Shown here piece by piece: positions 690-57,960 of a stretch of 64,000 bases of DNA. The DNA comes from Uloborus diversus (taxonomy: Eukaryota). A program made the position numbers and the translations under genes. A model generated the notes under the pieces. It was not told the origin of the DNA and made no database searches. It saw nothing but the letters and a program-made list of their open reading frames with translations. Where the stretch lies: positions 29,620,384 through 29,684,383 of the forward strand of contig NC_072740.1 in NCBI RefSeq assembly GCF_026930045.1, in the 5' to 3' direction. Within the stretch, counting starts at the first letter, position 1. Each line of letters opens with the position of its first letter.

Positions 690-809
690 TCTTTTCATGG
701 AAATAATGGTTCTGTCAAGACAATTGCTTATACCCCTGATGGTCACAATATAATTACATCATTTATTCATTCTGACATTATAATTTGGTCATCTGAATTA
801 GGTCTGAAG
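690..809 (+). CDS. WD40-repeat protein gene, internal exon (…SFHGNNGSVKTIAYTPDGHNIITSFIHSDIIIWSSELGLK); gene continues upstream of window
   Basis: Acceptor ttttag|T at 689/690 and donor AAG|gtatgc at 809/810. The open frame shows a WD-repeat pattern (GH..V..IA.SPDG..I.T.S.D..I.IW). Phase 0 links to the next exon. Confidence 0.6.
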
Positions 810-890
810 GTATGCTATAAACTTTTATCTTTGAAGTTCTCTAAATAAGGTATAATTATATATATTTATAGTTTTCATACTTTTTTTTAG

Positions 891-983
891 ATTTCAAGTT
901 TAAAAGGTCATGTTCTACCTGTGAAATCCCTTAGTATTTCTGCTGAAATGTTCATCAGTGGTAGTGATGATGGTACTTTAAAA
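891..983 (+). CDS. WD40-repeat gene exon (ISSLKGHVLPVKSLSISAEMFISGSDDGTLK)
   Basis: Acceptor ttttttttag|ATT and donor AAA|gttagt. The sequence ends GTLK and joins VW of the next exon to give the canonical WD ending GTLKVW. Confidence 0.65.
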
Positions 984-1273
984 GTTAGTTCCTTTAGTTT
1001 AATTTACATATGTTTATAAAGAAAATGCAAAAGTTGTAACTGTTTGTTTTTCGAAATACAGTTGGACCTCCATATATCAAAGTAGCAAATTGCCGGAAAA
1101 AAATTCGATATATGAAAATTTTGATATATAGAAACGATCTTATTTCATCATAAAAATCTCCTAAAACGTTGAAATTAAAGCTAATTTTCGTGCATGAAAT
1201 CCAATATGTCTATTGTATAGAAACATTGTATAGAAACAATTTTTCTATGTAATGAACATAGAAATTCGCTGTG

Positions 1274-7059: not shown

Positions 7060-9460
7060 TTATGGGGGAGGGGGAGACTGCAAAGCCTATTATATAAGTA
7101 TCTGCAACAGAGAAAAGCTATAAGCCATCTTGGTGAATAAATATTTTAGCAATTTATTCTAATAATATAGCTACAGCAAGGATTCTCATGTGTTTGTGTC
7201 AGAGGGGGGGGGGGATTCTGAGGCAGATTATACCACAGAGAAACGTTTGGAGAAATTACTTGAAATTACTTTAGAAGAATTTCAGTCTTTTTATTAGTGG
7301 GTTGCAATTCTTGAGGGAAAAGGGGACTTGGTAAAATTGAGGGGTGCCTTCGCAGTCGGGGGAATGGGCACCCCTAGTTAAATCATCAGCATATTAAGAT
7401 ATACTACAGAAAAACACCATTGGATTTTTATCTTGAAAAGAAAATATTCCATCGGTTTATTTGAATAATAATAGCTAAAGCAGGTGTGCTCATTGGGGGG
7501 GGGGGGGCTGGATGCTTAGTATACAATTAAAATTATCAGAGAAGTTATTTTAAAAGGAGTTTAGTCTCTTCAATAAAAGGTCGCATTTTGGGGGAAGCAC
7601 GATAAATTTGAGGGGGGAGGGAGATTTATGTGAATAATAATAGCAATATATAAGAATAATAACAGCCCATGCAGGGGGAAGGGAAGTCATGACTCAGATA
7701 GTGTCATTAAATTTTTTACAGAAGGATTTTAATCCAATAAAAAGATGATGGCGTTTTTCTTTTGTTTGGGGGGGGGGGGGGGGTGATAAAATTGAGAGGA
7801 GCCACTGCACTTGGGGAGGGAAATTGGCACCCCAGCTACATTACATACATTATAAGATCTGCAATACAGAAAAGTCATCCAATATCTTGATAAGCAAATG
7901 TTCCAGCAATTTAGACAAATAATAATAATGCCTAGAGCAGGGTACCCATTCAGTGGGGGGGGGGGGGTCTTGAAGTTGACTATGCCATTGAAAATATCAG
8001 GGAGCTTATTTTAAAAGTATTTTAGTCTCCTAAGTAGGGACTCTTGTTTTTTGGGGGGGGGTCTGGGGAGCTTGGTAAAATTAAAAATAAGGGGTCCATC
8101 GCACTTAATGGGGATTGGTAGCCCTAGCATTTTGATCTATATATTAAGATCTGCAATAAAGAGATACCTACGAAAATGTTGAAATGTAAATATTTCAGCC
8201 AAGGGCGCCCATATGCAAAATTTTAAGGGGGTGGCTCAAAAATTTTCCCCATGGTTTAGCAGAATATTTTACCCATGGAAACCGATTTCAGTACAGATTA
8301 GAGATATTAAAGTTTGACATTTTCAATAACTTATTCATTAATGGCTGGAAAAGAAATTTTTATACATTTTTGCAAAGAAAAAAGCACTAAAAGCAAGGAA
8401 GTTCTCATTTCTAGGGGGGAGGGGCTTGAGACACCCTTGCTCCCCTATATGGGCACCCTTGATTCCAGCAATTTATTCTAATGATAAAGCTGGGGTGCCC
8501 ATTTGAATGGGAGGGGGGGGGGCATGAGGCTGACAATACCACTGAAACTATCAGAGGAGTTATTTTTAAAGGATTTTTGACTCTGCACTAGAATAGCCCG
8601 TTTTTTTCGGGGGAGGGGATAACGCTCAGTACAATTGAGGGGTGTCGTCGCAATTGGGGGGATGTGCTTCCCTAACCATATTATTTGTATATTGAGATCT
8701 GCAATAGAGAGAAGCCATCGGACATTTTGAAAGCTAAATACCAAAGTAGTTTTAATAATTGCTAAAGCAGAGATATGCCCATGGGGGGGGGGAGGGGGGC
8801 ATGAGGCAGACTCTGTTCCTGAAAGAATCAGAGAGGTCATTTCAAAAGAATTTAGCCTTTTTTTGAGGATCCCGTTTTTTTTGGGGGGGGGGGTTAGGTA
8901 AAAAAGGAGGGGGGGGGGTGGTACAATGCACTTGGGGAGAATTGGCACTCCTAGCTACATGATCTGCAGTAGAGCAAAGTCACCATAAATCTTGATCCGT
9001 AAATATTTCAGTAATTTATTCAAATAATAATAGCTGAAGTATATAGAAGTGCACTTCCTTGGGGAAGGGGGGGGGGGGAGGGCATGAGACAGACTTTACT
9101 ACTGAAATAATTAATGAAGGTTTTTTAAACAGATTTCAGTCTCTTTAATGAGATGTCATGTTTATTTTTTTTTGGGGGGGGGCGCTTTGTTTTAATTGAA
9201 GAGGTCATCTTTGGGAGGGGGGACTTGGACATATATCTATGCATATCAAGATCAAACAACGTCCCTCCCCCCACTCATGTGGTGAGGGGGGTCACAAGCA
9301 CAGACAAAATTGTTGAAATTTTACAAAGGGTACTTGAAAACTTTCAAGTCTTTGCGAAACAGTTCTCATTATTGGGGAATAACATTTTTGGGGGGATTAG
9401 GAAGATGCCATGTAAACTTTCAAGGGGAGGGGGGTAACATCCATACTTAAATCATCTGCC
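7060..9460. repeat. intronic satellite-like tandem array, ~8 units of ~285 bp, each with G-homopolymer tracts
   Basis: Anchors 'gcaatttattc.aataata.agc…gggggggg…gaggcagat…ttgaggggtg.c.tcgca.t.ggg' recur at ~7151, 7445, 7900, 8465, 8745 and 9005. Confidence 0.8.
8209..8465. mobile_element. ~255-bp MITE (hAT-like) inserted in one satellite unit; TIR CAAGGG(C/T)GCCCATAT; 8-bp TSD atttcagc/attccagc
   Basis: The left end 'caagggcgcccatatg' pairs with the right end 'catatgggcacccttg'. The flanks are ATTTCAGC and ATTCCAGC. A second family copy is at 62590-62890. The other satellite units lack the insert. Confidence 0.75.
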
Positions 9461-10661: not shown

Positions 10662-10801
10662 GTCTGGAACTTTTTCTCATCAACAACTACACTTGTTGGA
10701 AATATTGGTTCAAGAGTAACTGCTATCATTCAAAACAGAAGTATTATTTTTTGTGGTGCTGCAAATGGTGACATTGGGATGTTTACTTACCCTGAATTAA
10801 T
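10662..10801 (+). CDS. WD40-repeat gene exon (VWNFFSSTTTLVGNIGSRVTAIIQNRSIIFCGAANGDIGMFTYPEL-)
   Basis: Acceptor ttatag|GTC and donor AAT|gtgaga. It ends in phase 2. Confidence 0.55.
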
Positions 10802-10882
10802 GTGAGAAAAATATCTTTTCTAGTTTTATTAACTTTTGTGAACATAATGTAGCATTAAATTTTTTCTTGTTTTATTCATTAG

Positions 10883-10985
10883 GCATACAAAAATAATAAA
10901 TAGAGCCCATAATGCATCCATTACAACTTTATTTTGTAAGGATAAGTCTGAAGATGTGATTCTTGTGTCAACATCTACTGACAAA
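10883..10985 (+). CDS. WD40-repeat gene exon (MHTKIINRAHNASITTLFCKDKSEDVILVSTSTDK)
   Basis: Acceptor cattag|GC and donor AAA|gtaagt. It completes the phase-2 codon (at+g=ATG) from the previous exon. The STDK motif is WD-like. Confidence 0.6.
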
Positions 10986-11057
10986 GTAAGTTACGTGAAA
11001 ATTATTTGAAAACTAAATAAGTTGTGGAAATCCGTCTTTGACATGATTATGTTTTAG

Positions 11058-11177
11058 GGAGTGAATGTATGGTTACTCAAAGAAATATTTGATAATATGG
11101 ATGTAGATTTACTTGCTCAATATTCTACCAAGCATAAAGATTATGTAACAGCTGGATGTTTTATGGAACTATTGACA
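11058..11177 (+). CDS. WD40-repeat gene exon (GVNVWLLKEIFDNMDVDLLAQYSTKHKDYVTAGCFMELLT)
   Basis: Acceptor gttttag|GGA and donor ACA|gtaagt. Phase 0 in and out. Confidence 0.6.
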
Positions 11178-11391
11178 GTAAGTATGTTTTATATTGCCTT
11201 CTCTTTTTGCTTTTAAAAAATTGTTAAATGAATTTGCTTTCTGATTTTTCTAAAGATATAACTGTCAACTGAAGTATTTCAGAGCCTTATAAACATTTTG
11301 GTAATAAATGCTGATTTTTTTTACATTTAATGTCGCTTTAAAAAATATTATGTTAAATTAATTTAATGTTTTGTTTTTGTATGCATTATAG

Positions 11392-11523
11392 GATGAAACT
11401 ACTGATGTGGAAGGTGAAAGTTTTCTTACGGGATCTTGTGATAATAACATTATCTATACCAAAGGAGATTATAATATTGTCTTTAAGGGTCTGCAAACCA
11501 GTGTGAACCATGTAGGATATGCA
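11392..11523 (+). CDS. WD40-repeat gene exon (DETTDVEGESFLTGSCDNNIIYTKGDYNIVFKGLQTSVNHVGYA)
   Basis: Acceptor cattatag|GAT and donor GCA|gtaagt. Phase 0. Confidence 0.6.
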
Positions 11524-14017: not shown

Positions 14018-14144
14018 AATGACTGTATTTTTGGTTGTGGAATTGATGGCAGTATAATTGTGTGGTCTGTTGATGGAAGAGTTTTGAGTTCTGTACCTGG
14101 AATCAACCAGTCTTCAGCAGTATTAGCATACTGTATTGATAGAG
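14018..14144 (+). CDS. WD40-repeat gene exon (NDCIFGCGIDGSIIVWSVDGRVLSSVPGINQSSAVLAYCIDR-)
   Basis: Acceptor ctattag|AAT and donor AGAG|gtaagt. It ends in phase 1. The sequence has a WD-like GSIIVWS. Confidence 0.6.
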
Positions 14145-14159
14145 GTAAGTTTTTTTACA

Positions 14160-14895
14160 AAACTGTTGCTATAAAAATCATTTTCAAATAAAAAAAAGAA
14201 CCTACTTTAAAAAACAAAGAGGAACTAAAAAGTCAAAAATAATTGGTCATACTTACATATGATTTCCTACCCAAACGTATAAGTCAAATTCATTTTACAA
14301 TTCCAGTACAAAAATCAACTAAACTAAGCACCCAATTATAAAATAAACACTGATTTTAATTACTGTACAATGAATTATTTTAATACCTGACTAATTATAT
14401 ACGAGAAATGCCCTGGCTAATTGGGCGGTAATTTACTGAATATAATTATATACGATCTCTTAATTTTTAATAACCATTTGAAGTCGGGGCCTCCTATAAA
14501 CTACTACCTAACGTAACTGCCTATGATTAGTTTTAAAGACTTTTGCATTTTGTTTAATTAGTGTTTAACTCGGGATTTGGTGGGTTGTCAGTTACGTTAG
14601 GTAGTAGTTTATAGGAGACCCCAACTTCAAATGGTTATTAAAAATTGAGAGATTGTATACATTTAGTTAGGTATTAAAATAATTCATTGTATAGTAATTA
14701 AAATCAGTGTTTATTTTTTAATTGGGTGTTTAGTTTAGTTAATTTTTGTACTGGAATTGTAAAATAAATTTGATGTATACATTTGGGTAGGAAATCGTAT
14801 GTAAGTATGTCCAATTATTTTTTACTTTTTAGTTCCTCTTTGTTTTCTGAAGTCGATTCTTTTTTATTTGAAAATAATTTATTTTTTTCTTTCTA
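14160..14895. mobile_element. foldback / long inverted-repeat element (~350-bp arms, short loop) in an intron immediately after the exon donor at 14144
   Basis: 14175-14530 is the near-perfect reverse complement of 14545-14890 (e.g. aacaaagaggaactaaaaagtcaaaaataattgg… vs …ccaattattttttactttttagttcctctttgtt). Confidence 0.85.
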
Positions 14896-16700: not shown

Positions 16701-19700
16701 ACTATCTGAACTTCAGAAAACCTAAATATGTTGTAAATTTAAAAAAAAAAAATGATGCTATTGCTTACAAGCTGACAGGTTAAGTTAGTTGACAAATCTT
16801 GACTCACTCTAAAAGAAATATAGGTAATTAGAGGACCCGACAGACGTTGTTCTGTTCAAACTTTGTAAATTGAAAAGTTATAAAATTTCAATAAACTATC
16901 AAGTGTTTGAACCGTTTTGTTAAAAAAAGTAAGTAAAAGGAAAATGTTTTAAGCTGCTTGGTGTCGGAATACATATATTTATTACTACTTGATTTATCTA
17001 ATGCCCACTGAGCAGTTGTTTTATTAACTATTTTTTCTCCCGTACTTGATGGTTTGTTCCTTCAGCCATACTCAAAGGATAAAAAGCCTTCTCAGATATT
17101 AAGTGTAAAAAACTATCTACCCATTTAGAACAAACGGGAAACCCGGCTGTAACATCTCGCATATGAAAAAGAATAAAACAATTGCAAGGATAGTGTTTGA
17201 AAAAATGATTAAGGTAAAAACAGTTCTCTGAATAGGCAAAAATCACTCATTCCCCCCCCCCCCCTCCTGATGTAAAATAAACACAATCTGCAACTAAATT
17301 GACGAAACATTCTTTAAAAACAAAAAAGAATTCTTTGCAATTTGAAATATTTTGCCAAATAAACAAAAAATACAATAAATTACATTAACAGTAGCTTTAA
17401 AGTGTAAACAAATGTTCAGGCAACTCTATTGTTTATAGCCTAACTTGGCAAGCCACCACATTGCTGTTATCCAACCGATCAGTGAGCGAAGCTAACTCCG
17501 GCCGATTAGTGGTCCGATCTTTTGAACGAAAACTTTTAAAACTTCATATATTGCCTAATTTGTTCTTTCCACCAAAGATAAAGATCTTCCACTGCATTGA
17601 TCTTTTGTGTACAGAACTACCCTGTTGTAATTTATCTAGACGAAAATAAAATTTGTTTCGTCTTTAAATTCCATCATTTTTTCCTTTAATAATGTACTGA
17701 TTAGTTTGATAATCCTTAAAGTATTCTTGACACTGGTCCAAAACTCAGATGGATTTGAGTCGAGAAACAAATGTTGCTAGGTACAATATGTACTTGCTGA
17801 TCACATGGTTGGAAAAACCTAAAGCACCGATTCAGTCACATGGTTCATCTACGATGATAGAACATACGTTTTGCGTGAACCTTCCAGTACTTACTCCAAG
17901 ACCTATAATCGTTGCTTTCAAGAAATGAAGGCTTCACTCTCTTCTCTCTACATTTTATATATTCTCAATTGACATATCACAGTATTAAATTTCATTACAA
18001 AAGCAGAGCTGACTTTCTTATTGTCCTTTGACAACGGGTTAAATACTTATTTCATTTCTCACTCAGCAATAGGTTAAAATAAATATTAATCATTCGGGAG
18101 ATATAACCATCCAATATTTTAATTAATTAATTAACAAAAACGTTTCTGATTCGATCCATCGTGCTTCTAAACCATGCTTTATGCAACTTAACTACACACA
18201 AAAATTTTGATCAAAATCGGTCCAGCTGTTTAAAAGTTTTATGGTGACAAATGTCCGCACAGAAGAAATATATATATTAAGATGTTCAGTTTAAAAAAAG
18301 AATTTTTAAACAGTTTAGAAGGGGGAAATGTGAACCCTTCCTTGTAAACTATGTTTAAAAGCTTCAAACTACAACTAAAGAGTATAAATAGATATTGCTA
18401 TTATACAAGCCTAAAGCATAATTTGCTCAGTTTATTTTACTTTACTGCTTGTTTTTTTATGTTATTTTGAGAGGCAAATTGAGTTAAACACTTTCTAAAA
18501 CCTGAAAACTATAGAGTTGAACAGCAGTCTAGCTGTAGGGTTAAATTGTTGTGATAAACACCTCTTTTTGCATAGTTAATGAGTAAGTCAGTTTGCATTT
18601 TATCAGTTTTCTTCAGCAGGAGCTATACCTATATACAGGGAAACACCGTTTATACGTTTCTCTTTTATAGGTTTTTATCAATTATACGTTTTTTAAATTG
18701 GTCCCTACAGAGTCTAATACACATTAAGCTCTATCTATTATATGTTTTTTCATTTGTACGCTTTTTGTACAGTCCCTTCAAAAAGGTATGAAGGGTGCTT
18801 CACTGTATATAAAACAGACCATGTTTCTTTGTTTGTTTGTACCTGTTGGCCAGAAGCCTAAATAGCACCTACTGCTCTGAAACTTGGCACAAAATTTGAA
18901 TGTAACCCGGGGGTATGCACCTCAAAGCCCAAATTCTAAATTTCTGATTAGTTTTTTCTTAGTTGAATGTTGTATGTGATTCTTAGCCCTTTTTTGTGTT
19001 TATTTCGTCACAGACCCCCAACCAATCGCGCCAGGAAAATATTTTTTGTACTATACTGCAGGGAATTTAATTTCAAATATCATGACTGAAAAAATTTTGA
19101 AAATGGACCTATTTTTGAATTGTTTATGAATTTTTGAAAAACCTTTATTTTGCATTTTTTCCTGGATCTAAACCCATCCCGCCAAAAGTATGAGAGATAT
19201 CTTACCGAAATTTTAGTATGTAATAGTCAAAACATTTTACCCTCTTCAGATTTTTTTTTCAAAAATTTGCAATAGCTTTTTTTTTTACAATTTTTTAAAA
19301 CACATTATATCTTCTAGCAGTGACCTGGGGGGGAAAAGCTTTCTTCCTTTCACAACCTGTGATGTCATGATAGGGTGAAAAAGTTCCTTCCCACTTATTG
19401 TGACGTCATGCCTGGATTTCAATTCGATATTGAGGAATTGAATCTAATTTGTTGCAATGCTTCTTTTTTTTTTTTTTGCTACTGCTAACAGTAGTACTTG
19501 CTTTTTTTCTTTCCTCTTTTATTTAGGAATTCTTTCTTTTTTCAATCCCCCCTTTTCCGCCGGACGTTCGGCTGCATTGATTTTACTTTACATATTTGAG
19601 TATTTAATTTAATTATTTAATTAAAATAGTGAAGTGTTTTTTTTTTTTGTAAACACTGTTTTTGCACATTATGAGAAACAAGGAGAAAGCTTTTTTTTGT

Positions 19701-20424
19701 GTGTGCTATTTAATTAAATGAATAAAGTACAGTTTTTTGAATGATCTTTGTTTATATTAGGAAATGGGCGGAGAGGTTAAAATAAATAGAGACGGATAAA
19801 AAAAAATTTAGAGGTAGATAGCCACTGAAGGTGACAATTTTTGCGTAAAAAGAGGAATGACTCAAATTGCAACTGGAAATAGGTATAGAAAATACGAAAA
19901 AGAAAGATATATATATATCAATTAATTCCGCTGTCAAATTTGTTTAAACAGCCTCTGTAGACAGCAAACTTGGAATAAAAACGGGCGGGGGGGGGGGGGG
20001 GATTTTTTTAATTCAAAGGACTTCCTTTAAATTCTTAGCACGGGCATTGCTGTGCGGGTACTGCTAGTACAATGTATCACAAAAGTGACTGCATTCTCAA
20101 ATGTAATGCTTTTTTTTTTTTATTCCTTTCTAGTAAGAGCTCTAAAGTACCTTTTTCTTTAATTTCTGAAATAGCAAAGCTGTAGTATGGTTCTCCTGCG
20201 ATATTAAAATCCATTAAATATTCATTTCACATGTTGGAAGAAATTTTTAAGTTTTAATTTTTTTTTTTTAAAGAAAGAATCTCATAAATATGGGTAGCAA
20301 TTGTTGCAAACAGTGGAGGGTCAAAAACTACACAACTTCCGAGAATTGGTTGTGCAGTTTTCAGGCCTCAAAGAAACAAACCCAAAGCTATTTTTCTTAA
20401 AACTGGAAAACTTATGAAACAAAA

Positions 20425-21570
20425 GTTTATAATACAAATATGACGACCAGCAACAGGCTCTGGGCCCAACTAGGCTGGTCCTAGTCTGTTTATTAGTCTC
20501 CAATGAAGATCAATGGCCCTCTTAAAGCTATCCACCCCCATACTCATTACCGCCTCTTCCAGTAAGCTATTCCTAGTGCCCACGATCCTACTAAAGAAGT
20601 AATTTTTCCTAATTTCCAGGTTAGCCTGAGATTTGAATAGCTTAAAATAATGACCCTTCATACTGCTTTCTGTGCAAAAATTTAACCCGTTAATATCTTT
20701 CATTTTAATAAATTTAAACACCTGAATCATGTCCCTTCTGACTTTCCTTTGCTCCAGGCCATACATATTAAGCCTATTAAGTCTGTTATAGTCTAAATTT
20801 GAAATTCCCCCTTACTGGTCTAGTAACCCTTCTTTAAACAGTTTCCAATACAGAAATATCTTTCCTGAGGTAAGGAGACCAAAACTGAACAGCAAATTTC
20901 AAGTGATGTCTTACCAAAATCCTATATAAAGGCAGAAGAACGATTTATTCGAAATAGATCTATTGATAAACCCAAGCATTCTGTTGACTTTGTTACTTGC
21001 AATGCTGCGCAATTGACTAAGCTTGAAATCTTTATTAAGATCAATAACGTTTTTTGCCTGACTAATGACCGAACCCTGTAAATAAATAATAACTCATAGG
21101 CTTATTTCCATGACCTAAGTGTAGCACTTGGCATTTCCCTACATTAGCTGCTATACCCCACTTATCCACCCACTTAGTGATATGATCAAAATCCTCTTAA
21201 AGCTGTTTTACATGTTCCTCATTTTCTACTATCCCCATAACTTAACATCATCAGCATAACAATTCATGTTTCCAGAAATATTATCATCAATGTCATTCAT
21301 AAAATTAGTAAACAAAAGAGGCCCTAAAACTGATCCCTGAGCAACCCTGCTTAAAATGTCACTCCGTTTAGAATGATTTTCCCTCACAACTACTGTTTGT
21401 TTTCTTCCAGTCAGTCAATTCCTAACCCAAAGTAAAGTTTTCCAACTTTACTTTACTGTAATGTCAATCCAAATTTACTTTATTATAGTATTTACTATAA
21501 TCAAAACATTCTTCATGCTATTACGCTTTAAAGTTTCAAATCCAAAAGTAATAAGTGTTCCAGAAGTAAC
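20425..21570 (-). mobile_element. truncated, degenerate CR1-like LINE copy (3' part), left arm of an inverted pair
   Basis: The reverse-complement 3' tail is at 20441-20520. The 98-aa ORF 20470-20766 matches the RT C-terminus. The sequence is colinear with the RT region up to ~21570. Confidence 0.75.
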
Positions 21571-22239
21571 CATTGTCATGAGGAGAAAATAACAGTAATA
21601 AACGTCATTAAAAAAATGCTTTTTCATTTATTTTTTATTTATTTCTTATTTAAGATCTTTCTTTTCAATTTAAATGGCAAAAATCATTCACATTCAGCTT
21701 TTCCATGCAGAATTCTTTGATATGTGTGCTTAATTTTTGTGTTTCTTTGAAGCCGTGAAAAAAAGAGGAAATTTCTAACTTTGATTTTTTAAGGGCAAAG
21801 GGAAAAATAAAGTATTTTTCTGATGAAGTACTCTCTATTCTATTGTAAAAAAATACTTTTGATCAAATGAATAAGTAAACTTAATGATGAATGAGCAAAT
21901 GGGAAGATAATGAAACAATAAACGAATAATTAGATTAATTAATTAATATACCATTTATTTTATGATATATTAATTAATTAATCTAATTTATTATCTCATT
22001 AATATTTCATTTATTTTTCCTCATGTATTAATTAACTAATTATTTATTTGTTAGTTTATTGTTTCTTTACCTTTTCATTTATTTTTATATACTTTTATTT
22101 GCTCATTAATTCGTTCAAAAAATTTTTTTACAATCAAATAGAAAGTATTTCATTTGAAAGATGCTTTATAAAGATATATATATATATATATCAATTTATT
22201 CCTCTGTCAAATTTGTTTAAACAGCCTCTGTAGACAGCG

Positions 22240-22880
22240 AACTTCTGGAACACTTATTATTTTTGGATTTGAAACTTTAAAGCGTAATAGCATGAAGAAT
22301 GTTTTGATTATAGTAAATACTATAATAAAGTAAATTTGGATTTACATTACAGTAAAGTAAAGTTGGAAAACTTTACTTTGGGTTAGGAATTGACTGACTG
22401 GAAGAAAACAAACAGTAGTTGTGAGGGGAAATCATTCTAAACGGAGTGACGTTTTAAGCAGGGTTGCTCAGGGATCAGTTTTAGGGCCTCTTTTGTTTAT
22501 TATTTTTATGAATGACATCAATGAAAATATTTCTGGAAGCATGAACTGTTTTGCTGCTGATGTAAAAGTCATGGGATTGTTGAAAATGAAGAACAAGTAA
22601 AACAGCTTCAAGAGGATTTAGATCATATTACTAAGTGGGTGGATAAGTGGGGTATAGCAGTTAATGTAGGGAAATGCCAAGTGCTACACTTAGGTCATGG
22701 AAATAAGCCTATGAGTTATTATTTATTTACAGGGTTCGGTCATTAGTCAGGCAAAAAACGTTATTGATCTTAATAAATCAGGATTTCAAGCTTAGTCAAC
22801 TGTGCAGCATTGCAAGTAACAAAGTCAACAGAATGCTTGGGTTTATCAATAGATCTATTTCGAATAAATCGTTCTTCTAA
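22240..22880 (+). mobile_element. truncated degenerate CR1-like LINE RT fragment, right arm of the inverted pair
   Basis: The forward sequence …caggatcagttttagggcctcttttgtttatt… is the reverse complement of 20860-21570. It encodes the RT motifs in + orientation and includes a frameshift. Confidence 0.75.
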
Positions 22881-23329
22881 GAATTTAAAGGAAGTCCTTT
22901 GAATTAAAAAAATCCCCCCCCCCCCCGCCCATTTTTTATGCCAAGTTCGCTGTCTACAGAGGCTGTTTAAACAAATTTGACAGCGGAATTAATTGATGTA
23001 TATATATATCTTTATTTTTACTTTGCCCCATAAAAAAAAGTGAACATTTTCCACTTTTTTTTTGAATTAACAATTTTCTGCCAAAATAAAAAAATAATGT
23101 TTCAATGTAAGTTTTATTATGAAATACAATGTTCTTTCTTTATGCACTGCAATTTTCAAAACAAATTTCCTATTTGTACATTTTGAAAAAGCTCTGTCAT
23201 CTTAACTATTTCACTTTGCCCCACATTCCCCTACATCAGCAGATGCATCAAGAAATAGGACTCATAATAAAAATATGAGCTGACCTCAGGCATAACATTT
23301 TGATGCCATATATGATCTAGCTGTTTATA

Positions 23330-24400
23330 CAGATACAATACAAATACAAAAGTGACGACCAGCAACAGGCTCTGGGCCCAGCTAGACTGGTCCTAGTCAA
23401 TTTACAATCCCCAGTGAAGATCAATGGCCCTCTTAAAACTATCTACTCCCTTGCTCATTACCACCTCTTCCGGTAAACTGTTCCAAGGTTCCACTACCCT
23501 GCTATAATAATAATTTTTCCTAATATCCATGTTAGCCTGAGATTTAAATAGCTTAAAACAATGACCTCTTGTCCCGTTTTCAGTGCATCAGTGCTAAACT
23601 TCAGCCCTGTAACATCTTTCATTTTAATAAATTTAAACAACTGAATCATGTCCCCTCGGTCTCTTCTTTGCTCAAGACTGTACATTTTTAACCTTCTAAG
23701 CCTGGAATCATAGTCTAAGTGAGAAAGTCCATTTATTAGCCTTGTAGCCCGCCTTTGAACCCTTTCCAATACATTAATGTCTTTCTTAAGATAAGGAGAC
23801 CAAAACTGAACAGCATACTCCAAATGAGGTCTTACCAAACTTCTATATAAGGGCAGAAGAACTTCTTTAGATTTGTTTGAAATAGATCTATTGATAAACC
23901 CAAGCATCTTATTGGCCTTGTTACTAGTAGTGCTGCACTGTTGGCTAAACTTTAAATCCTGACTTATTAAGACCCCCAGATCAGTAACTTTGTCTGCCTG
24001 ACTAATGACTGAACCTTGCAAATAATAACTTGTACACTTATTTCCATGCCCTAAATGTAGCACTTGACATTTCCCAACATTAACAGACATACCCCATTTA
24101 TCAGCCCACTCCGTAATATGATCTAGATCCTCTTGCAGCTGTTTTGCTTGTTCTTCATTATCTACAGTCCCCATAACTTTGACATCATCAGCAAAACAAT
24201 TCATGTTCCCAGAAATATTTTTGTGAATATCGTTCATAAAAACAATGAACAAAACAGGCCCTAACACTGATCCTTGAGGAACCCCGCTTAAAACCTCACT
24301 CCAATTAGAATAATATCCCCTCACTACTACCCTTTGTTTCCTACGTTTGAGGTCATTAGTTTGTTTGCCAGCATAATTTTCATATTTCCCCAATTATTTT
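23330..24400 (-). mobile_element. 5'-truncated copy of the same CR1-like LINE (RT C-terminal region plus 3' tail)
   Basis: The 299-aa minus-strand ORF 23494-24393 is near-identical to the RT segment 48463-49599 (…NCFADDVKVMG…). The reverse-complement tail sits at 23335-23420. Confidence 0.85.
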
Positions 24401-25871
24401 TATTGAATAGAGCTTGACTTTAAAAGAAAAGTATGAATGAGCAATAATTGCCAATTTAGTAATTCTTTCGTTTTTTCTGGCTGCCGAGAATGTCCTGTGG
24501 ATGAGCCTTTAAGATTTCAAAGCGATTATTTTTCCAATACTGTAAAAGCACTTATTTTCGCAAAAATGAAGATATCAGTGATTTTGCAAGTTGAAAACTT
24601 TGTGAATTTTATATGAACAGATTGAAAATTGAGAAACAAAAATATTTCGTGTGGCTTACATTCTCGTGATTACAACGGGCACACAAAAAATGCGAAAATT
24701 ACAGTACTGCAAAAATGAGTGCTTTTACAGTCACCAAATAAAATAAAGACGCTACTGTAAATGTTATAGAAGAGGATGATAACAGACATTTTTGTAAAAA
24801 AAAATAGAAATAGTAGATAATTCTTAGTAATATTCCCTGTTTAAGTGAGCTCATTTATCAATCTAAACCTTTTTTTCGTCCAATTCTCTTATGGTGTGTG
24901 TGTATTAGAGTGTCTCCTCCCAAAAAAAAAAATGAAAGTTGATTTTTCAATTTGTACACCCTCCTTTATTTTTCCTTTTACGTGAAAACAGTTGCAAAAA
25001 ACGTTTCTTATATTTTGAACAATGGCAACCAGTGCCCACTTAGCAACCAGTGTTGTCTGAGAGTGTGAACCAGCACTTGTAATGCTAGGCCAAATAAAAA
25101 AAAAAAAAAAACCTTTTTTTTGAAACTCAAAATTTCTGTTAATAAAATGTTGCCCCTATACCCCACATATACCACGAAAACATTTATTCAAATTAAAAAA
25201 CATTTAGGTATTTCACACTTGGCATAAAATTTATAATTTTCTTCAAAAAATTTGATTTTTTTTCAATATCTATTTGTTAAAAATTTAAGGTAAATTTTAC
25301 GAAATTATCAAGCTGAAAAATGTAAACAGTAAAGTGTGTAATTAGCGGTGGTATTTATGGGGTGTGGGGGGGGGCAAAGTTTTATCAACAAAAATTTCGA
25401 GTTTCTAAAAGAAAGTTTTTTTTTTCGATTTGGCCTGCATACAAGTGCTGGTTTACGCTTTCAGGCGCATGTCGGCACTGGTTGCCGTTGTACAAATTAT
25501 GTGAAACTTTTTTCACAATGGTTTGGACATAAGAGGAAAAATATAAGAGGATATGTGACTTGACAATTCGACTTTCATTTTTTATAGTACACTCTGGTTT
25601 CTATGCTTTTTATTTACTTATTTTTAGAAAATTAGTGACTACATTTCAAAAGTAATTTGTAAATGCTACATTTAAAAAAAGTATCTGTAGTTAAATGCAT
25701 TTGTAAAAGAAGAACTGCATTTGTTGAAGTAGCTGTAATTCGCTACAAAAAAAAATTTAGTTTTTCCAACCACTGCTATATTGTATTTAAATATTTTTAA
25801 ATAAAATACTTTTTTTAAAAAATTTAGTTATTGTTTATTTTTAATTGATTTGTAAAATTATTATTTTTTAG

Positions 25872-26159
25872 AAATCATTTTGGTATTCACTTCATGGGCA
25901 CAGCAAAGGTATCACATCTTGCTGCTTAGATGACTCAGGTGAAATTTTATCGTGTTCTCTTGATGGGACTGTTAATCTGTGGAAAACACCATTTTCTGCT
26001 CCTGGCAATTCTCTCATTCATGCAACAGCTATTACAAGTGTTTTATTTTCTTCTGAATGTGACGTAATTCTGAGTTCTGATACTGAAGGGAACGTAGTTT
26101 TATGGAAAGTGTCTTTATCTTCTAAGGGCTACCATCTCATATATGTTACTAAAAAAACT
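25872..26159 (+). CDS. WD40-repeat gene exon (…LHGHSKGITSCCLDDSGEILSCSLDGTVNLWK…SSDTEGNVVLWKVS…)
   Basis: Acceptor ttttttag|AAA and donor ACT|gtaagt. The 96-codon open frame holds two clear WD repeats (GH…DG.V.LW; D.EGNVVLW). Confidence 0.7.
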
Positions 26160-31753: not shown

Positions 31754-34704
31754 GTAAGTAACTTGATAATTTTCTCATTTTACGTTTAAAAAAAACACAT
31801 ATTGAGTTTTTCATACTTCTACTGTAATTTGTCTTCAGTGAAATCTAATTTTTATTTATATATTTTTTAACCTTAAAGTTAATTTTTTTATTGTGTTCAT
31901 TTGTTGTAATTGTTTTGTACACAATGTTAAACAGTGCCAATTTTCAGCTTGCAGTACATGCATTTAGAAGTGTATAATGCTATGATAATCTATTTACAAC
32001 ATGATTTTACAATAATCAAAGCCTCTGCCTGCTTAAGTTATTAAGAGCACTGCTTTCTTTTATGGCAAGGTTTTTTTTCTGTCCAATTGTTAAGATTTTC
32101 ACTGATTGGAAACTATTCAAAGTATATTTTTAGTGAGTTTCTTCTGGGATGAAAAAAAAAATATATATATATACTAAGACTGTTCACATCATGATTACTC
32201 TACTTGTTTGTTTCCTTTTTTATGTTCTGTTTCTAATCATAAGTTTTGTGTTTATGTTCAGATGTCACACTTTCAAATTTGTACATTGTAATGACTTATA
32301 GTGTCTATCAAGTAACATTTACTTTTATGATTCATTTATACGCTTCATAAAACTCATCCATTTTATAACAAAAATTGATAAAATTCAGGACAAAGTTGTG
32401 AAATTTTGTATTTTACAGATTTTTGATGGATGAGCATCAAATTTTGCCTTGTGCTTAGATTGACTTGTAGCCTAGTGCTAACACATTTTGCTTGAAAGTA
32501 GAAGGTCTAAGGTTCTAATTTAAAGGCTTTGGAGTCATTGATTTAGAAAAGAAAGTGATGAGATGGTTGTTGATTAGCACGGTTGGAGTTTTCCATGTTT
32601 TCTTCTATTAATTATGGGTCAGCCACTCTAAAACGTCTTTTCAAGTTTCATTTCATAAATCACATTATATAAATGGCAAGGTAATAGTGACATGTAAGCA
32701 AACATAAATTACTTTTAGCTCTGTTTCAGTTCAGTCAGGGAAACACTGGGCTGGTATCTATCTTTTTTTTTTCAAGCCCCTTTAAGTAAAGGAAAACAAA
32801 AAGAAAAGAAATGGAGCGATGTATTGCAAAAAATAAATAAATAAAAATGTACAAAAATTTAGCCAACAGTAAGCTAACAACTAAGCAAAAGCCCATCTGT
32901 ACAAACAGAAAGTGTTTTATGAGAGCAAAGGCAAAATATCTACCTATTTGTGGCTATACACTAGATTGAAACAGAACAAACAGAACTGTGTACCAAATTG
33001 TTTAAATTGCCTTGTTTATGTAACAAATACCATTTGCTAATTATGAAAAATAATTGCTGTGATATAATTAACATAACTTAGGTAAGTCTTAGTGTGTTTA
33101 ATGATTCAAACTTGAATTCAATTCAGTTTGCGTATAATTTGATGTATGAAAATGTTTAACAATTTGCCTTACCAAAACTCTAATTTCAAAGAATCGGTGA
33201 AATTGAACGTATTAGATTGTCATTCTCTTGCTAAACTGTCAATACTCAATTCATTTTTTTGAATAAGTGTCATGTGTAGTAGGCAACTTAAAGGACAAAA
33301 ATTGATATATTTTCCAGATGCTCTGTCAAAGTTCATTTTCTTTCAATGTTCATATTTTATTAACTACTAGCTGCATTGGCTGACTTTGCACAGTCTACCT
33401 CAAAAATAAAGTGATGCATGTTAAACAATCAGGCTTAAATTAAATTATAAAAAAAGCTGAATTGCCTCTCTAAATAATGACAGTCCCTGTAAATCGCCAT
33501 CAAAATTTGAACATCAGTCCCTAAAAACTCCCATTCGAATAAGGAAGCTTTGTAAATAAAGAAAACTCTCCTCTAAAAGTCCCAATTCCTGTCAGATTGT
33601 GTCGGGTGCTGAGTGAGTTATTTTGATTGCTGCATTGGTTCCTGCTGAGAAAAAACTGAGGGTATGTGAGCCCTGAGACATGTCTTTTTCTCCTGAATAA
33701 ATAAGGAGAAATATAGCTAAAATGGTCATTATAATAAAGGCAACAATCTCAAAATAGCATCAATTGTCCTTGCAAATCCTCATCAGAAAAAGGACAACCC
33801 TCCTTAATGATCCCCGCCAGAGTAAGACCAACAGTCCTTCAATATTCCCTGTAGAATGAGGACCATAGTCTCTCAAACTCTTCATAAGAAGAAGAAAAAC
33901 ACTCCCTAAATTTCCTTATTATGATAAGGACATCACTCGTTAAAGGGCAGAGTTACGGTAGCGTGGTTGCTTGGCACATTAAGCGATGAACTAATGCAGT
34001 TGAAGGATTATTTTGAGTTTTAAAGTTAATGCTAATCTTTTTATGTGTTTTGGCGAATAGTTTTAAATTCCAAAGAGAATCTAATAGGTTTTTGAAAATG
34101 TGTGTTTGCATTTTAGTTAAAGAAAAATGATCATTTCACATCAGAAGGGAAGGAGGGGATCGTGGACTATTTTTATTCAATGGACTTCCTTTAAATTCTT
34201 AGCACGGACATTGCCGTGCGGGTACTGATAATTTTAGATAAAACTGATTGGGGTGACTCAGTCACCCTGTCCAATCTCTTTTTGTCATTGTTGGGTGCAC
34301 GATCTCTCACGGATTAAAAGTCACCAGATTACTTCTTGGTTTTTTGCGACTTTAGGATTAAAAAGAGACAATCTTCTGAAATTTTTAATGATTCCATAAC
34401 TGTGTTAGTTTTTGAATATACACTGATAAATGTGAGATGAAGCACATCATAAGCATGAGCAAGATTACAGAGAATTATTCATAAAGTATCTCCAGAAATT
34501 TAAAACATGTTTGACATCCAAAGCGCTTTGCTTTGTTTGACCATGTAGTGTGTGTTGTGTACATATGTACATACAAAGAATTGTTATTTACGTAAGTGAA
34601 GAGTTTTAAGGATTAATTTTTGAATAATGATTGATACATATTTTATTTTGCTTGTTTTATTTATCTGCTGAATTGGACTTTTTATACTTTGTACTTCATT
34701 ATAG

Positions 34705-41065: not shown

Positions 41066-41154
41066 ATGTTATTGAAGCAGAAGAAATTCTTTAATGTGTT
41101 GTAAATGCTAAAGTACTGCAGCTTTTAAGTTTATGTTCTCAGTTATATGCAGTA

Positions 41155-41345
41155 CTAGCCATCTGCGGTGACCAGTTGGTTCGCCCTTTTACGCCATTTG
41201 CCTTTTTATGTAAGCAGCCGCCCACGGCGACTGTTTGACTTGCTTGTCATTCACCTATTCACGCAAAGATTGCTGCCTTTGGTGGCTGCTTAGATAAATT
41301 TGGCACCGGTATTAATCAATATATATCGATTTATATCAATATTAA
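41155..41345. repeat. tandem ~65-bp subrepeats each carrying a GC hairpin (…ttacgcca…gcagccgcccacggcg…); related array at 42845-43090
   Basis: 'agcagccgcccacggcgactg', 'agcagccacctacggcggctg', 'ttgccgacttcggcggctg' and 'ttgccgccttcggcggct' are short perfect hairpins spaced ~65 bp apart. Confidence 0.6.
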
Positions 41346-42354: not shown

Positions 42355-44925
42355 TACACAATAAATTCTCACCTCCGTTACCTGAACAGAAAACTCCATT
42401 TCTCATTAACACGTGCAAGTAATGACATCACATTTTATTTTCCATAATGCAAGAGAACTTCCTTGTTTATTTTCAGATACAAAGAAGTTGTGAGATTTTT
42501 GTCGAAAAACAAGAAGATAGATTTTTTTGAAAAACCAAGTGTGATTATTGTGAACTCTCACCTCCGTGAACTTGAATTTCAGGGATGTGAATTAATGTAA
42601 AAAAATAAGTGAACATGTTTTCATATGTTTAACTTGTGCAGATTGTAGCAACGAAGAAAAAAAAAATATTTCCCTGAAAATGTATCCTTTAGACCTATAT
42701 TATTGGAAAATTCCTCATTTCCGTGACAGATCTAATCAATGTCATTATTTCTGAAGTAAAAATAAATGATGGAGGGGAACTACATTAATATTAGGCATTC
42801 TACCAAAATTATAAATTGCCAGTATATTCGCGAATTTATTAACTAGCCGCCTGCGGCGACCAGCCGCTCCGCTTTCTTACGCCATTCGCCTTTCTATGCA
42901 AGCAGCCACCTACGGCGGCTGTTTATCTAACTTGTCATTTAAATTTTTACGTCAAGTTTGCCGACTTCGGCGGCTGTTTAAATAAATTTGGCAGCAGTAT
43001 TAATCAATGTATCTCTATCTTTTGTTGTGCCATTCACATTTTTACGCCAAGATTGCCGCCTTCGGCGGCTATCTACCTTTACGATTTATCTCTAAATTTT
43101 CTTATCCATCTCTATTTATTTTAACCTCCCCGCCCATTTCCTGATAAAAACAAAGATCACTCTAAAAAAAAAAACACCTTTTTTTATTTAAGTAGAGCAA
43201 AAAAAAAAATTAACTCTAATTTGAATTCCGAAACTTTGAATTCAATTTATGTTTTTCGCAATCACGAGTTGCGACAAGACTCTACTGGTTAGAGTTATTG
43301 TTTCTAGAAATGGCTCCCCCGTCCAAGCATGTCCCTCCTCCTGGGTGTTTACGTGTATATAGTTGTGTGCGTGTGTGTGTAGGCTTACGTGTGTGCACGT
43401 AGGCGTGTGTATGTGTGTAAAGGCGTGCGCGCATAGGCAACTGTGTATGCGCATGCGTGTGTAGGACATGGACGCCACCGCCCAGCAGAAGTGGATTCCG
43501 GGGGACAGTGCTCAGGACCAGCCGCGCCGCCGCCGGTGGACGGTGGTGCTACAGGCCTGGTCCAAGCTGAAAAAGGAACCGGATCATCAAGGACTGTCAA
43601 GTGAGAACAATAAGCAATCGTGATTGCTCAAAAAATATCTTCAAAATTCCCCATAGTGTGCAAAAAGTAGCGTTTGACAAAGAAAAAAAAAATCTCTGTT
43701 ATTATTGAATTAAATGTGCATAACTATGAAATGTAACGTAATATAGATGCAGCAAAACGTTGCAGCTTGGGGGGGGGGGACGGAAAAAGAAATAAATGCA
43801 ATCCCTAAATTAAACAAAAAAAGGAAAGAAAAAAAGCAAGCTCTGCCGGAAAACACGCAGTCATCACGTCATAAAATGTAGAAGTAAGCTGTATAGTAAA
43901 AACAAATGATAAACATTGTTTGCAATTAAGATTCCATCGTAAATACCGAATCGAAATACAAGTAGTGACGTCAAAGGCATAAAAGATTGAAGAACGCTTT
44001 TTTCGACTGATGCGTGGAAAGACATAATGTGTTCAGCATTAAAAAATTGTTTAAAAAAAACTATTGCGTATTTTTAAGAACTTTTTTCTTCCGAAGAGGG
44101 CGAAATGGTTTTACTATTGCCAACTTAAATTTTAGAAATGGGGCTTTGATAATTCTCGCAGGATGATATTTAAAAAAAACAAAACCCAGGAAAAATGCAA
44201 ATTAAAGGTATTTTTAAAAATTCATTAAAAATACAAAAACTTCAAATTTTTTTCATTCATCATATTTAAAATTATATCTCCTACCTTATAGTGCAAAAAA
44301 TATTTGTGTGGTGCGATTGGTTCGGGGTCTGTGAGGTAAAAAGTGCAAAAAAAACACATAAAACATTAAATAACTTTTTTTCTAATTAAAATATCGAAAA
44401 TCGAAGCCCGAGGTGCACATCTTCAGCAAAAACTGCACCTGTATACCAAATTTCATCTTTCTAGGCCTTACCGTTTTGTCGGGATGCGCGCCACACACAC
44501 ACACACACAAACATCTTATTTTATTTTATGTATAGACTATTTTTTACATATTTGAACTAAAAGGATATAACTAATCATTAAGCCGTACTTTAATTAAGAG
44601 AGCTTAGTATTAGATTCCCCCTAATCATTAAAATAGCTCATTTTTTTCACAATTAAGTAAATTACTACTTTTAATGTTTAAAAATCGAGGCTAATTTAAT
44701 ATCAGAGTTTTTTTCTTTTTTTTTTAAATTTCTATGAACAAGGTATTTTTAAATTTTTTTTTTTATTTATGAGTAAAATAATTGGAACTTAGCTGGGCCA
44801 ATGTTTATGGTTGTTTCTAGTAGGTAACACTTTCATGTAAGAATTAAAAGAAAACAAAAGATTTCGAAATTGAAAAATATTTGAGTTCAAAAGTTACGCC
44901 TTCTGGGGAATGACCCATACCCTCT
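42355..44925. repeat. dispersed repeat copy B interrupted by a ~1.7-kb composite insertion (42841-44540)
   Basis: The flanks 42355-42840 and 44540-44925 are colinear with 2460-2955 and 2960-3330. The intervening sequence is absent from copy A. Confidence 0.75.
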
Positions 44926-45970: not shown

Positions 45971-45987
45971 GCAGAGTTAGACGTAAG

Positions 45988-46416: not shown

Positions 46417-46475
46417 GTTGGAATGGGGGACATGGTTTAAGGAGCAGAATTCGAAAGGGTACTAACTATTGGGAT

Positions 46476-48245: not shown

Positions 48246-48278
48246 GACCCGACTTTCGGGGGGGGGGGGGGGGTTACT

Positions 48279-48360
<82 letters not shown>

Positions 48361-57880: not shown

Positions 57881-57960
57881 ATTGGTTGAAAAAATCGGCC
57901 CTGGCATTAAGAGATGTAGCGGCCCCATAGCTCTTATAGATTAGTAGGGTGGCATATTAC

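Follow-up and report, generated by a model that had tools for sequence, protein, structure and literature searches.

Complex templated insertions at double-strand breaks, in which two fragments of one locus lie in inverted orientation with 2-11 bp of microhomology between them, were described by Yu et al. (2024, NAR) (PMC11724301). Fold-back within single-stranded DNA has been demonstrated experimentally, and in yeast the templated insertions have a median length of 50-150 bp (PMC11724301). In animals, Tan et al. (2021, Nat Commun) reported single-copy Pack-TIRs that form by transposition-independent gap filling (PMC8277862); the fillers enter TIR elements from <5 kb away, with a median of 2 bp of microhomology (PMC8277862). 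Related mechanisms are SD-MMEJ and Pol theta snap-back synthesis (PMC2943611, PMC4912351) and MMBIR (PMC2621351).

Here we describe an inverted-repeat locus from Uloborus diversus, analyzed within a 64-kb stretch of DNA (the window) that has a base composition of 33% GC and comes from an animal-type genome. Judged by its alignments, the structure is one truncated LINE together with a patchwork copy of nearby sequence, pasted in backward ~600 bp downstream. Such a locus is an ordinary by-product of DNA repair or replication, an event of a known kind. An earlier, sequence-only reading had called the nested palindrome unusual; this was overstated. At least three further palindromes lie in the window, and the literature already recognizes local insertion of templated or inverted sequence as a class (PMC11724301, PMC8277862).

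Results

Two nested inverted repeats

Matches were collected by repeat finding and by BLAST of the region against the whole 64-kb window. Comparison with the reverse complement returned long matches of high identity, as the sequence-only reading had predicted. The inner arms (segments B and B' in Table 1) are reverse complementary at 95.1% over 639 columns (E = 0). Their spacer of 673 bp agrees with the ~670 bp anticipated, but the left arm starts at 20934 and not at 20860. The outer arms, 19897-20038 and 22877-23019, are reverse complementary at 93% over 144 columns (E ~1e-55), which bears out the repeat first placed at ~19905-20060 and, inverted, at ~22880-23000. The additional copies noted at 22170-22250 and 34180-34230 are real, but both are in direct orientation: a third, partial copy of the outer repeat (repeat X) at 22167-22244 is 95% identical to 19907-19971, and 34164-34230 is a 67-bp match to 20000-20066 at 90%. 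The core 22-mer had 5 matches, against 0 expected in shuffles. None of the arm and repeat matches within the 64 kb can have arisen by chance. One inverted pair does lie inside the other, as in a nested palindrome, but the arrangement is asymmetric, its right side being a single insertion of three pieces.

A chimeric read or a mis-join could create a false inverted duplication, and inverted duplications are known from some long-read and amplification methods. Artefactual foldbacks, however, are near-identical and lack a spacer. Here, 33 alignment columns differ between the inner arms, a 4-bp indel among them, and the outer arms have diverged by 7%. The inner-arm divergence of ~5% argues against an assembly artefact, as do the three ordered segments with microhomology junctions, the precise interruption of an older palindrome and the count of 0 Ns in the window, and we consider such an artefact very improbable. 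The mismatches are strongly clustered, with 22 of the 33 mismatch columns falling in 21150-21320. An RNA-editing signature between the arms was rejected (15 transitions versus 14 transversions).

Table 1. Coordinates of the source locus, the inserted unit and the recipient palindrome
Feature	Position	Strand	Remarks
A-rich tract AAAAAGAAAG	19897..19906	+	Just left of copied source; the outer-arm BLAST alignment extends into it
Source segment C, left outer arm (repeat X)	19903..20038	+	Self-matches in window
Left-only stretch, skipped in the copy	20039..20933		895 bp; from junction alignment
CR1-clade LINE, 5'-truncated and decayed	~20426..21441	-	C-terminal part of RT plus 3' UTR
Source segment B, left inner arm	20934..21567	+	508 bp LINE plus 126 bp non-LINE flank (21442-21567)
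Unique spacer between source and old palindrome	21568..21757		No other match in window
Older AT-rich imperfect palindrome: left arm, centre (~21958-21988) and most of right arm	21758..22169		Recipient
CTTTAT, left copy	22164..22169	+	Duplicated target hexamer
Unit segment A	22170..22244	+	19903-19971 in direct orientation, (TA)n run extended
Unit segment B', right inner arm	22241..22878	+	Reverse complement of 20934-21567; CR1 RT sense on + strand
Unit segment C', right outer arm	22877..23009	-	Reverse complement of ~19907-20038
CTTTAT, right copy	23010..23015	+	Duplicated target hexamer
Distal right-arm end of old palindrome	23016..23061		Displaced by unit; pairs with 21758-21806

A CR1 LINE in the inner arms

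Reverse transcriptase (RT) sequence makes up most of the inner arms, blastx to CR1-type RTs covering 20461-21441 (-) and 22367-22874 (+). The closest proteins were bird and turtle CR1-type RTs at ~50-60% identity, and a sibling open reading frame at 23494-24393 matched Pfam RVT_1 (E = 2.4e-16). A look-up of one CR1 open reading frame by its exact sequence gave no record. Family matches beginning at 20426-20431 place the 3' end of the LINE, and blastx found no RT homology beyond 21441. The inner-arm repeat was thereby confirmed as a CR1-clade LINE, with the clade taken from protein similarity. The window is rich in copies of this family. The young copies are 95% identical to one another, a near-full-length element with long open reading frames lies at 45512-49664, and by these copies the family looks recently active.

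The sequence-only reading had seen two LINE RT fragments; the RT content stood, but the fragments are not two insertions. The abundance of the CR1 family in the window would suit a history in which two LINE copies and two or three copies of X, perhaps with twin priming, landed independently in opposite orientations. Against it, the two arms have in common the non-LINE flank that adjoins the LINE, and they are 95% identical to each other versus 79-82% to any other copy in the window; for these two reasons we regard the right arm as a segmental copy of the left. In addition, the right arm is without the LINE 3' end needed for retrotransposition, X joins two different repeats at a junction specific to this locus, and the segments meet directly at microhomologies, none of them flanked by a target duplication of its own. 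Independent insertion, contradicted by these features, was rejected as extremely improbable. Twin priming was rejected because the arms carry non-LINE sequence, the right copy lacks 20426-20933, and 673 bp of unrelated sequence lies between the arms.

The left side as source and the right side as copy

Repeat X is composite: AAAG, a (TA)n run and the last subrepeat of a repeat Y (to ~19981) are followed by a G15 run and the start of a repeat Z. Segment A derives from the first 69 bp of X. For the Y part, 42944-43022 and 41266-41326 match at 77-78%, and for the Z part 34164-34230 at 90%, while the Y/Z junction was found only in the X copies when the window was compared with itself. Neither the X core nor the Z core was matched in metagenome contigs scanned for the exact pattern (0 matches each). 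The stretch skipped in the copy contains the remaining Z, ~390 bp without assignment and the 3' part of the CR1 LINE (~20426-20933). Positions 20431-20933 are the remainder of the left-arm LINE and have no duplicate on the right side. Splicing was rejected as the cause of the skip: wherever the junction is placed, neither strand offers GT-AG ends.

At 20933/20934 the sibling LINE copies continue without a break, and in the 43-kb copy repeat Y likewise runs on across the point equivalent to 19897-19903. Because both repeats are continuous at these points, comparison with their relatives shows the left side to be the ancestral arrangement.

By the same alignments, the right side (22170-23009) is a single chimeric unit of ~840 bp, composed of three left-side pieces: 19903-19971 in direct orientation, 20934-21567 inverted (with its 126 bp of non-LINE sequence) and 19903-20038 inverted. 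The last piece reaches this full length in segment C' if the CTTT at 23010-23013 is assigned to the unit. Since the non-LINE flank and the locus-specific Y/Z junction are both included, the arm pairs are copies of the left locus and not dispersed repeats. The last 4 bp of segment A, ACTT (22241-22244), form a microhomology with segment B', and B' and C' join at a 2-bp microhomology, CT at 22877-22878 (AG on the other strand). The junctions read ...GCGAACTT/CTGGAAC, with ACTT in common, and ...CTTAG/AAGAACG, with AG in common. When 19903-20038, 20936-21567 and the reverse complement of 19903-19967 are joined, with nothing else added, the resulting model agrees with 22170-23013 at 94.3% identity, end to end. 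The whole unit maps to 19903-20038 plus 20934-21567 at 94%, and the donor keeps the continuity of both the LINE and repeat Y.

The unit is bounded by a terminal inverted repeat of 71-78 bp, 22167-22244 versus 22943-23020, that is 91% complementary. Within GCGAACTT, a G stands at both termini at a position that is A in the source and in the two other copies of Y. Copying of one terminus from the other would be expected to leave such a common G.

Interruption of an older palindrome

The unit interrupts an older, unrelated palindrome. Positions 21807-22169 match their own reverse complement at 70% over 369 bp, and 21758-21812 matches 23061-23010 at 76% (E = 6e-5), across the unit. Excising 22170-23015 in silico gave a continuous palindrome of 458 bp and raised the score from 150 to 205 bits. 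The predicted unit-free site would hold this palindrome intact as ...GATGCTTTATTTTTACTTTGCCCC.... If the AAAG/CTTT is assigned to the unit, the duplication flanking it is AT alone (22168-22169); the palindromic nature of CTTTATAAAG makes the length of the duplication, judged from this one insertion, ambiguous (CTTTAT or AT). The alignments establish the composition of the unit from three pieces, the sequences of its junctions and the interruption of the older palindrome.

The recipient palindrome had no second copy in the window and no clear target duplication at its ends. The palindromes at 14175-14880 and 24927-25583 and the restored 21758-23061 had no cross-similarity, and a common family was rejected. 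The presence of several unrelated palindromes in the window suggests that fold-back events recur in the Uloborus diversus genome.

A proposed templated insertion with fold-back

On balance, and at a little better than an even chance, we favor an origin in one old microhomology-mediated templated insertion with fold-back at a DNA break, of the SD-MMEJ or MMBIR type. The order of its steps, like any enzymes involved, is inferred; it would run as follows. The right arm of the AT-rich palindrome would have been broken at a point between 22169 and the present 23016. The 3' end on its right side (...AAAAATAAAG-3', - strand) would have annealed to AAAAAGAAAG, ~2.3 kb upstream, in the orientation that yields an inverted copy. 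Synthesis would next have copied 19907 to 20038, and a template jump at the 2-bp AG microhomology would have carried it to 20934, with copying on to 21567. The new 3' end (...AAGT) would then have folded back onto ACTT in the nascent strand (the equivalent of 19968-19971) and copied that strand to its start. Such fold-back copying would yield the direct segment A, the terminal inverted repeat and an apparent CTTTAT duplication, after which the final end would have been joined to the left side of the break.

The A-rich tract at 19897-19906 is proposed as the annealing site that fixed the start of copying. It matches the reverse complement of 23010-23019 (AAAAATAAAG) at 9 of 10 positions, and this match between source and target sits exactly at the right junction. 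Several points count against the templated-insertion model. The match falls within an A-rich tract of low complexity and may be coincidental; a single instance was examined; experimentally documented inverted templated insertions are mostly 50-150 bp, versus 840 bp here; and a clean CTTTAT duplication and terminal inverted repeats are also expected from a transposase. The model also leaves the clustering of the arm mismatches unexplained, and would need later gene conversion from another LINE copy.

A transposase could have acted if the unit were a non-autonomous TIR transposon, MITE-like or Pack-TIR-like, that hopped locally into the old palindrome. Its ends would derive from the end of repeat X, its interior would have been replaced by neighboring sequence during abortive gap repair, and transposase would have been supplied in trans. 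Complementary termini of this length fit such an element, as does a discrete insertion with a 6-bp (CTTTAT) or 2-bp (AT) duplication whose excision restores the recipient precisely. The unit lies 0.6-2.3 kb from its source sequence, the microhomology at its internal junctions is typical of deletion derivatives, and the derived G common to both termini is also compatible. The behavior of repeat Y points both ways. One copy, 41154-41330, stops at about the unit-terminus point (~10 bp from it), which counts against templated insertion and hints that this point may be a true boundary of an element and not a chance site of annealing. At the source and at 43022-43025, however, Y passes through the supposed terminus, making the "end" internal to a longer repeat. 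Moreover, the termini, AAAG plus (TA)n, carry no recognizable TIR signature, no transposase open reading frame or related coding sequence lies nearby, the 64 kb contain one copy of the unit, and transposase-mediated integration would make no use of the 9/10 match at the right junction. We judge a TIR element unlikely, but it is the main rival.

A variant of the TIR reading is that the unit is a newborn mobile element: fold-back on one repeat end would have made perfect TIRs around captured LINE sequence, and the resulting proto-MITE or Pack-TIR would have been mobilized once, to be caught one hop of 0.6-2.3 kb from its birthplace with the donor intact alongside. We hold this to be rather improbable. 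If true, the newborn-element reading would give a base-resolution snapshot of TIR-bounded, non-autonomous elements arising from scratch.

Predicted hairpin and putative host gene

We folded the inner 2 kb of the 3.1-kb structure as RNA. In the predicted fold, 616 of the 634 bases of an arm are paired to the opposite arm, and the minimum free energy is -1188 kcal/mol versus about -388 kcal/mol for three mononucleotide shuffles. The longest perfect duplex run between the arms is 116 bp. On this prediction, the arms would form a near-perfect hairpin of ~630 bp in any transcript crossing the locus. With 673 bp between the arms, a cruciform is unlikely to be extruded from duplex DNA.

The locus sits between WD40-coding open frames on the + strand, and by this position it presumably lies within an intron and is plausibly transcribed as intron RNA. 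The WD40 exon translation had no word-sharing homologue in the protein collection. Rfam gave no match in 18500-25800 at a permissive threshold, and no tRNA or SINE head was found in the whole window.

Selection might keep the inverted repeat as a hairpin-RNA locus whose double-stranded RNA would give small RNAs against CR1 or alter splicing or editing of the host transcript. Such a role concerns function, not origin, and would be compatible with either a templated-insertion or a TIR origin. The extent of predicted pairing, the apparent recent activity of the CR1 family and the position between WD40 frames are all in keeping with it. The arm, however, has in common with the young CR1 copies only one exact stretch of 29 nt, or 9 of the ~618 possible 21-mers. 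The two arms have diverged by 5%, and by ~14% in a patch, which does not suggest selection for pairing, and one fifth of the stem is non-LINE. We consider selection on a hairpin RNA quite improbable. The consequence of the rearrangement is the predicted hairpin.

Discussion

Repeat annotators would list this locus as two opposed LINE fragments and some short repeats, and would miss the single event. By our favored reading, one repair or replication accident would have turned a dead LINE fragment and its flank into an inverted repeat of ~630 bp. The same accident would have made terminal inverted repeats from nothing and placed a strong predicted hairpin in what is probably an intron. Should the host gene be expressed, its pre-mRNA would carry long double-stranded RNA, which would bear on RNA editing, small RNAs and back-splicing.

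Hairpin-RNA (hpRNA) and endo-siRNA loci resemble this one in having a long, near-perfect inverted transposon repeat in a probably transcribed region. The present locus differs in its few exact matches to the active family, and it is known here from sequence and a predicted fold. LINE twin priming likewise yields LINE sequence in both orientations, and its inversion junctions carry microhomology; unlike its products, the inverted pieces here include non-LINE sequence, the right copy is without the LINE 3' end, and the separator is 673 bp of unrelated sequence.

MITEs and foldback elements have, like the unit, long terminal inverted repeats, no coding capacity, a length of <1 kb and a short flanking duplication. 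In contrast to those of MITEs, the termini of the unit are internal to a longer repeat elsewhere (at 42944-43022 and at the source), although the copy at 41154-41330 stops there.

The gap-filled Pack-TIRs are closer. In both cases, a recipient bounded by inverted repeats was broken internally and filled from <5 kb away (here, 0.6-2.3 kb upstream), with microhomology or near-homology at the breakpoints, and the product is single copy, here within the window. The recipient here differs in being a 458-bp imperfect palindrome and at most a putative TIR transposon. A second difference is in the filler: it consists of repeats (the LINE and others) rather than a host gene, and is chimeric with a terminal inverted repeat of its own.

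Against the complex templated insertions, three differences stand out: at 840 bp and three segments the unit is unlike those of yeast, one junction has the longer 9/10 match, and the event is a fixed, aged germline one in an animal-type genome rather than the outcome of an induced break. The likenesses to that class are several. All pieces of the unit come from one nearby locus, and the 19903-19971 piece overlaps the 19903-20038 piece in inverted orientation. The microhomology between inverted pieces, ACTT, is 4 bp long and falls within the 2-11 bp range. The break junctions have short homology, and both source and target are structure-prone, with a (TA)n run, a G15 run and an AT-rich palindrome.

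An inverted repeat copied from one locus

Repeat finding on 19000-24000, together with BLAST of this region against the whole window, bore out both inverted pairs seen in the sequence-only reading. The inner pair, its arms 673 bp apart, aligned 20934-21567 with 22241-22878 at 95.1% identity over 639 columns, and the outer pair aligned 19897-20038 with 22877-23019 at 93% over 144 columns. The left inner arm was first read as starting at 20860; its start is at 20934. Two further partial copies had been taken as inverted, but both lie in direct orientation: 22167-22244 copies 19907-19971 at 95% identity, and 34164-34230 is a 67-bp match to 20000-20066 at 90%. E-values of the four matches ran from 0 to 1e-19, and the core 22-mer of the repeat was found five times against none expected in a shuffle control, which excludes chance.

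The inner arms are mainly reverse transcriptase (RT) sequence of a CR1-type LINE. Blastx with CR1-type RTs of bird and turtle covered 20461-21441 (-) and 22367-22874 (+). A sibling ORF at 23494-24393 (-) matched Pfam RVT_1 (E = 2.4e-16), and its nearest proteins were such bird and turtle RTs, at about 50% identity. The left LINE copy is the longer, running from a 3' end near 20426 to a 5' truncation near 21441, and LINE copies at 23337-24342 and 48632-49664 align to it unbroken across 20933/20934. The latter copy is part of a near-full-length element (see table). Identity of 95% between the 3' kilobase of this element and 23337-24342 indicates fairly recent activity of the family. A block of microsatellite, G runs and C runs at about 48200-48500 breaks up this element.

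Coding frames, LINE parts and segments of the chimeric unit
Feature	Position	Strand or orientation	Basis or content
WD40 open frame	690-986	+	Pfam, above cut-off, E = 3.5e-8
WD40 open frame	25872-26150	+	Pfam, above cut-off, E = 7.5e-12
Weaker WD40 candidate frames	10662-11460, 14018-14149	+	Scores under Pfam cut-off
Near-full-length CR1-type LINE	45512-49664	+	ORF1-like frame, endonuclease-region ORF, RT ORFs
ORF1-like frame of this LINE	45512-46416	+	
Endonuclease-region ORF of this LINE	46476-47756	+	
RT ORFs of this LINE	47753-49599	+	
Segment A	source 19903-19971	direct	Base-level alignment
Segment B'	source 20934-21567	reverse complement	Base-level alignment
Segment C'	source 19903-20038	reverse complement	Base-level alignment

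The arms had been read as two LINE RT fragments in opposite orientation. However, their last 126 bp (21442-21567) had no RT similarity by blastx yet were duplicated together with the LINE, and the two arms agree with each other at 95% identity, against only 79-82% with the sibling copies. The right arm is therefore a copy of this particular left-hand locus, and no second LINE was inserted. As origins of the structure, twin priming and independent insertions are exceedingly improbable: the arms share flank that is not LINE, the right arm lacks the LINE 3' end, and the outer repeat, X, is a composite.

X begins with ~80 bp (to 19981) that form the final subrepeat of Y, a longer repeat family; the Y sequence at 18990-19981 aligns in reverse with 44352-42944 (71-78%), and 41154-41330 is another Y fragment. 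The rest, a G15 run plus ~57 bp, comes from a different repeat, Z, also found at 34164-34230. The Y/Z junction was found only in the copies of X; by its sequence, X is locus specific. Y extends leftward through 19897-19903 at the source and at 43022-43025, and this continuity, with the unbroken sibling LINEs, marks the left side as the ancestral context. Each of the ~95-bp Y subrepeats (42842-43200, 41154-41330 and 19820-19981) carries a short GC-rich hairpin (GCCGCC...GGCGGC) amid AT-rich sequence, and no coding capacity was seen in the Y copies of the window.

Differences between the inner arms are clustered: 22 of the 33 mismatch columns fall within ~170 bp (21150-21320 versus 22490-22660) spanning the RT active-site region, where divergence is ~14% compared with ~1.5% elsewhere. 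Within this patch derived states occur on both arms, and transitions are not in excess. Later gene conversion from a third CR1 copy is possible and is the simplest guess.

A chimeric unit in an older palindrome

Base-level alignments resolved 22170-23009 into a single chimeric unit of three segments (see table), with 895 bp of the source (20039-20933) skipped. At the A/B' joint (...GCGAACTT/CTGGAAC) ACTT is common to both parents, as is AG at the B'/C' joint (on the complement, ...CTTAG/AAGAACG). A model built from these source coordinates alone was 94.3% identical to the observed unit over its full length. Segment A repeats the end of C' in inverted form, which gives the unit terminal inverted repeats (TIRs) of 71-78 bp. 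At each terminus the unit reads G (GCGAACTT), whereas A stands at this position in the source and in the two other Y copies.

Within the spacer lies an imperfect AT-rich palindrome (21807-22169, 70% over 369 bp by BLAST), and a 55-bp match joins 21758-21812 to 23061-23010, beyond the unit. When 22170-23015 was excised in silico, the palindrome became continuous over 458 bp and its score rose from 150 to 205 bits. The unit is an insertion into this older palindrome. CTTTAT flanks it on both sides (22164-22169 and 23010-23015). Since CTTTATAAAG is palindromic in its own right, a duplication of AT alone would fit equally well. The target sequence at the right junction, in reverse complement AAAAATAAAG, agrees at 9 of 10 positions with AAAAAGAAAG (19897-19906), which lies directly left of the copied source.

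Given ~5% arm divergence with indels, orderly microhomology junctions and a precisely interrupted older palindrome, an assembly artefact is scarcely credible; the feature is real and aged, and its history is unusually well resolved. Elsewhere, a 100% identical 299-bp tandem duplication (57288-57586 and 57584-57882) is either very recent or an artefact of assembly.

Two more spacer-less imperfect palindromes, at 14175-14880 (706 bp, 75%) and 24927-25583 (657 bp, 68% self-complementarity), share no sequence similarity with one another or with the 458-bp palindrome (21758-22169/23016-23061). Finding four such structures within 64 kb suggests recurrent fold-back duplication, or several families of foldback-type elements, in this genome.

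Host gene context and RNA folding

The WD40 frames probably belong, as exons, to a single large host gene. No gene model was found, and the translated WD40 exon had no word-sharing homologue in the protein collection. Since the two stronger frames lie on the + strand on either side of it, the repeat region is probably intronic in this gene. Most local GC peaks of the window (33% GC) are G-run/C-run repeats of a tandem or dispersed family (7329-9032, 62613-62882 and 53100-53800) that reads as poly-Gly/poly-Pro in translation.

The predicted RNA fold pairs 616 of the 634 bases in one arm with bases of its partner, and its minimum free energy is -1188 kcal/mol; three mononucleotide shuffles gave about -388. 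With a 673-bp spacer, duplex DNA is unlikely to extrude a cruciform, and hairpin formation across the spacer would be confined to single-stranded states or RNA. This very strong fold and the apparently recent activity of CR1 would suit a maintained hairpin-RNA locus, a matter of function and not of origin, but the arms have drifted apart and just one 29-nt exact stretch is common to an arm and the young CR1 copies, making such a role very unlikely.

Origin of the unit

We lean toward an origin by break repair in which nearby sequence was copied with microhomology-guided switches. On this reading the old palindrome would have broken in its right arm, and the right-hand 3' end would have annealed at the 9/10 match, which would explain both the start point of copying and its inverted orientation. 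Synthesis would then have run to 20038, jumped through AG to 20934 and continued to 21567. There the new end may have folded back on ACTT in the nascent strand and copied that strand to its own start, before being joined to the opposite side of the break. Such a fold-back would account for both unit ends stopping at the same source coordinate and for the G that they share against the A of the source and Y copies.

A TIR-bounded nonautonomous element that had hopped locally would likewise present inverted termini and a discrete insertion with target duplication near its donor, and the Y fragment at 41154-41330 ends within ~10 bp of the same point. It is nevertheless rather unlikely: Y passes through the supposed terminus elsewhere, the termini are AAAG plus (TA)n, no transposase is encoded nearby, and a single copy is visible in the 64-kb window. 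More doubtful still is the reading of the unit as a newborn TIR element that has made its first hop.

The repair reading has close precedents. Yeast break-repair products include two-fragment insertions from one locus, inverted, with 2- to 11-bp microhomology joints, and the same study showed fold-back inside single-stranded DNA directly (PMC11724301). Single-copy "Pack-TIR" structures in animals arise by transposition-independent gap filling, with the source mostly <5 kb away and short microhomology (PMC8277862). The underlying frameworks are Pol theta snap-back synthesis, SD-MMEJ and MMBIR models (PMC4912351, PMC2943611 and PMC2621351). The feature belongs to a known class, the local microhomology-mediated templated or inverted insertion of repeat sequence.
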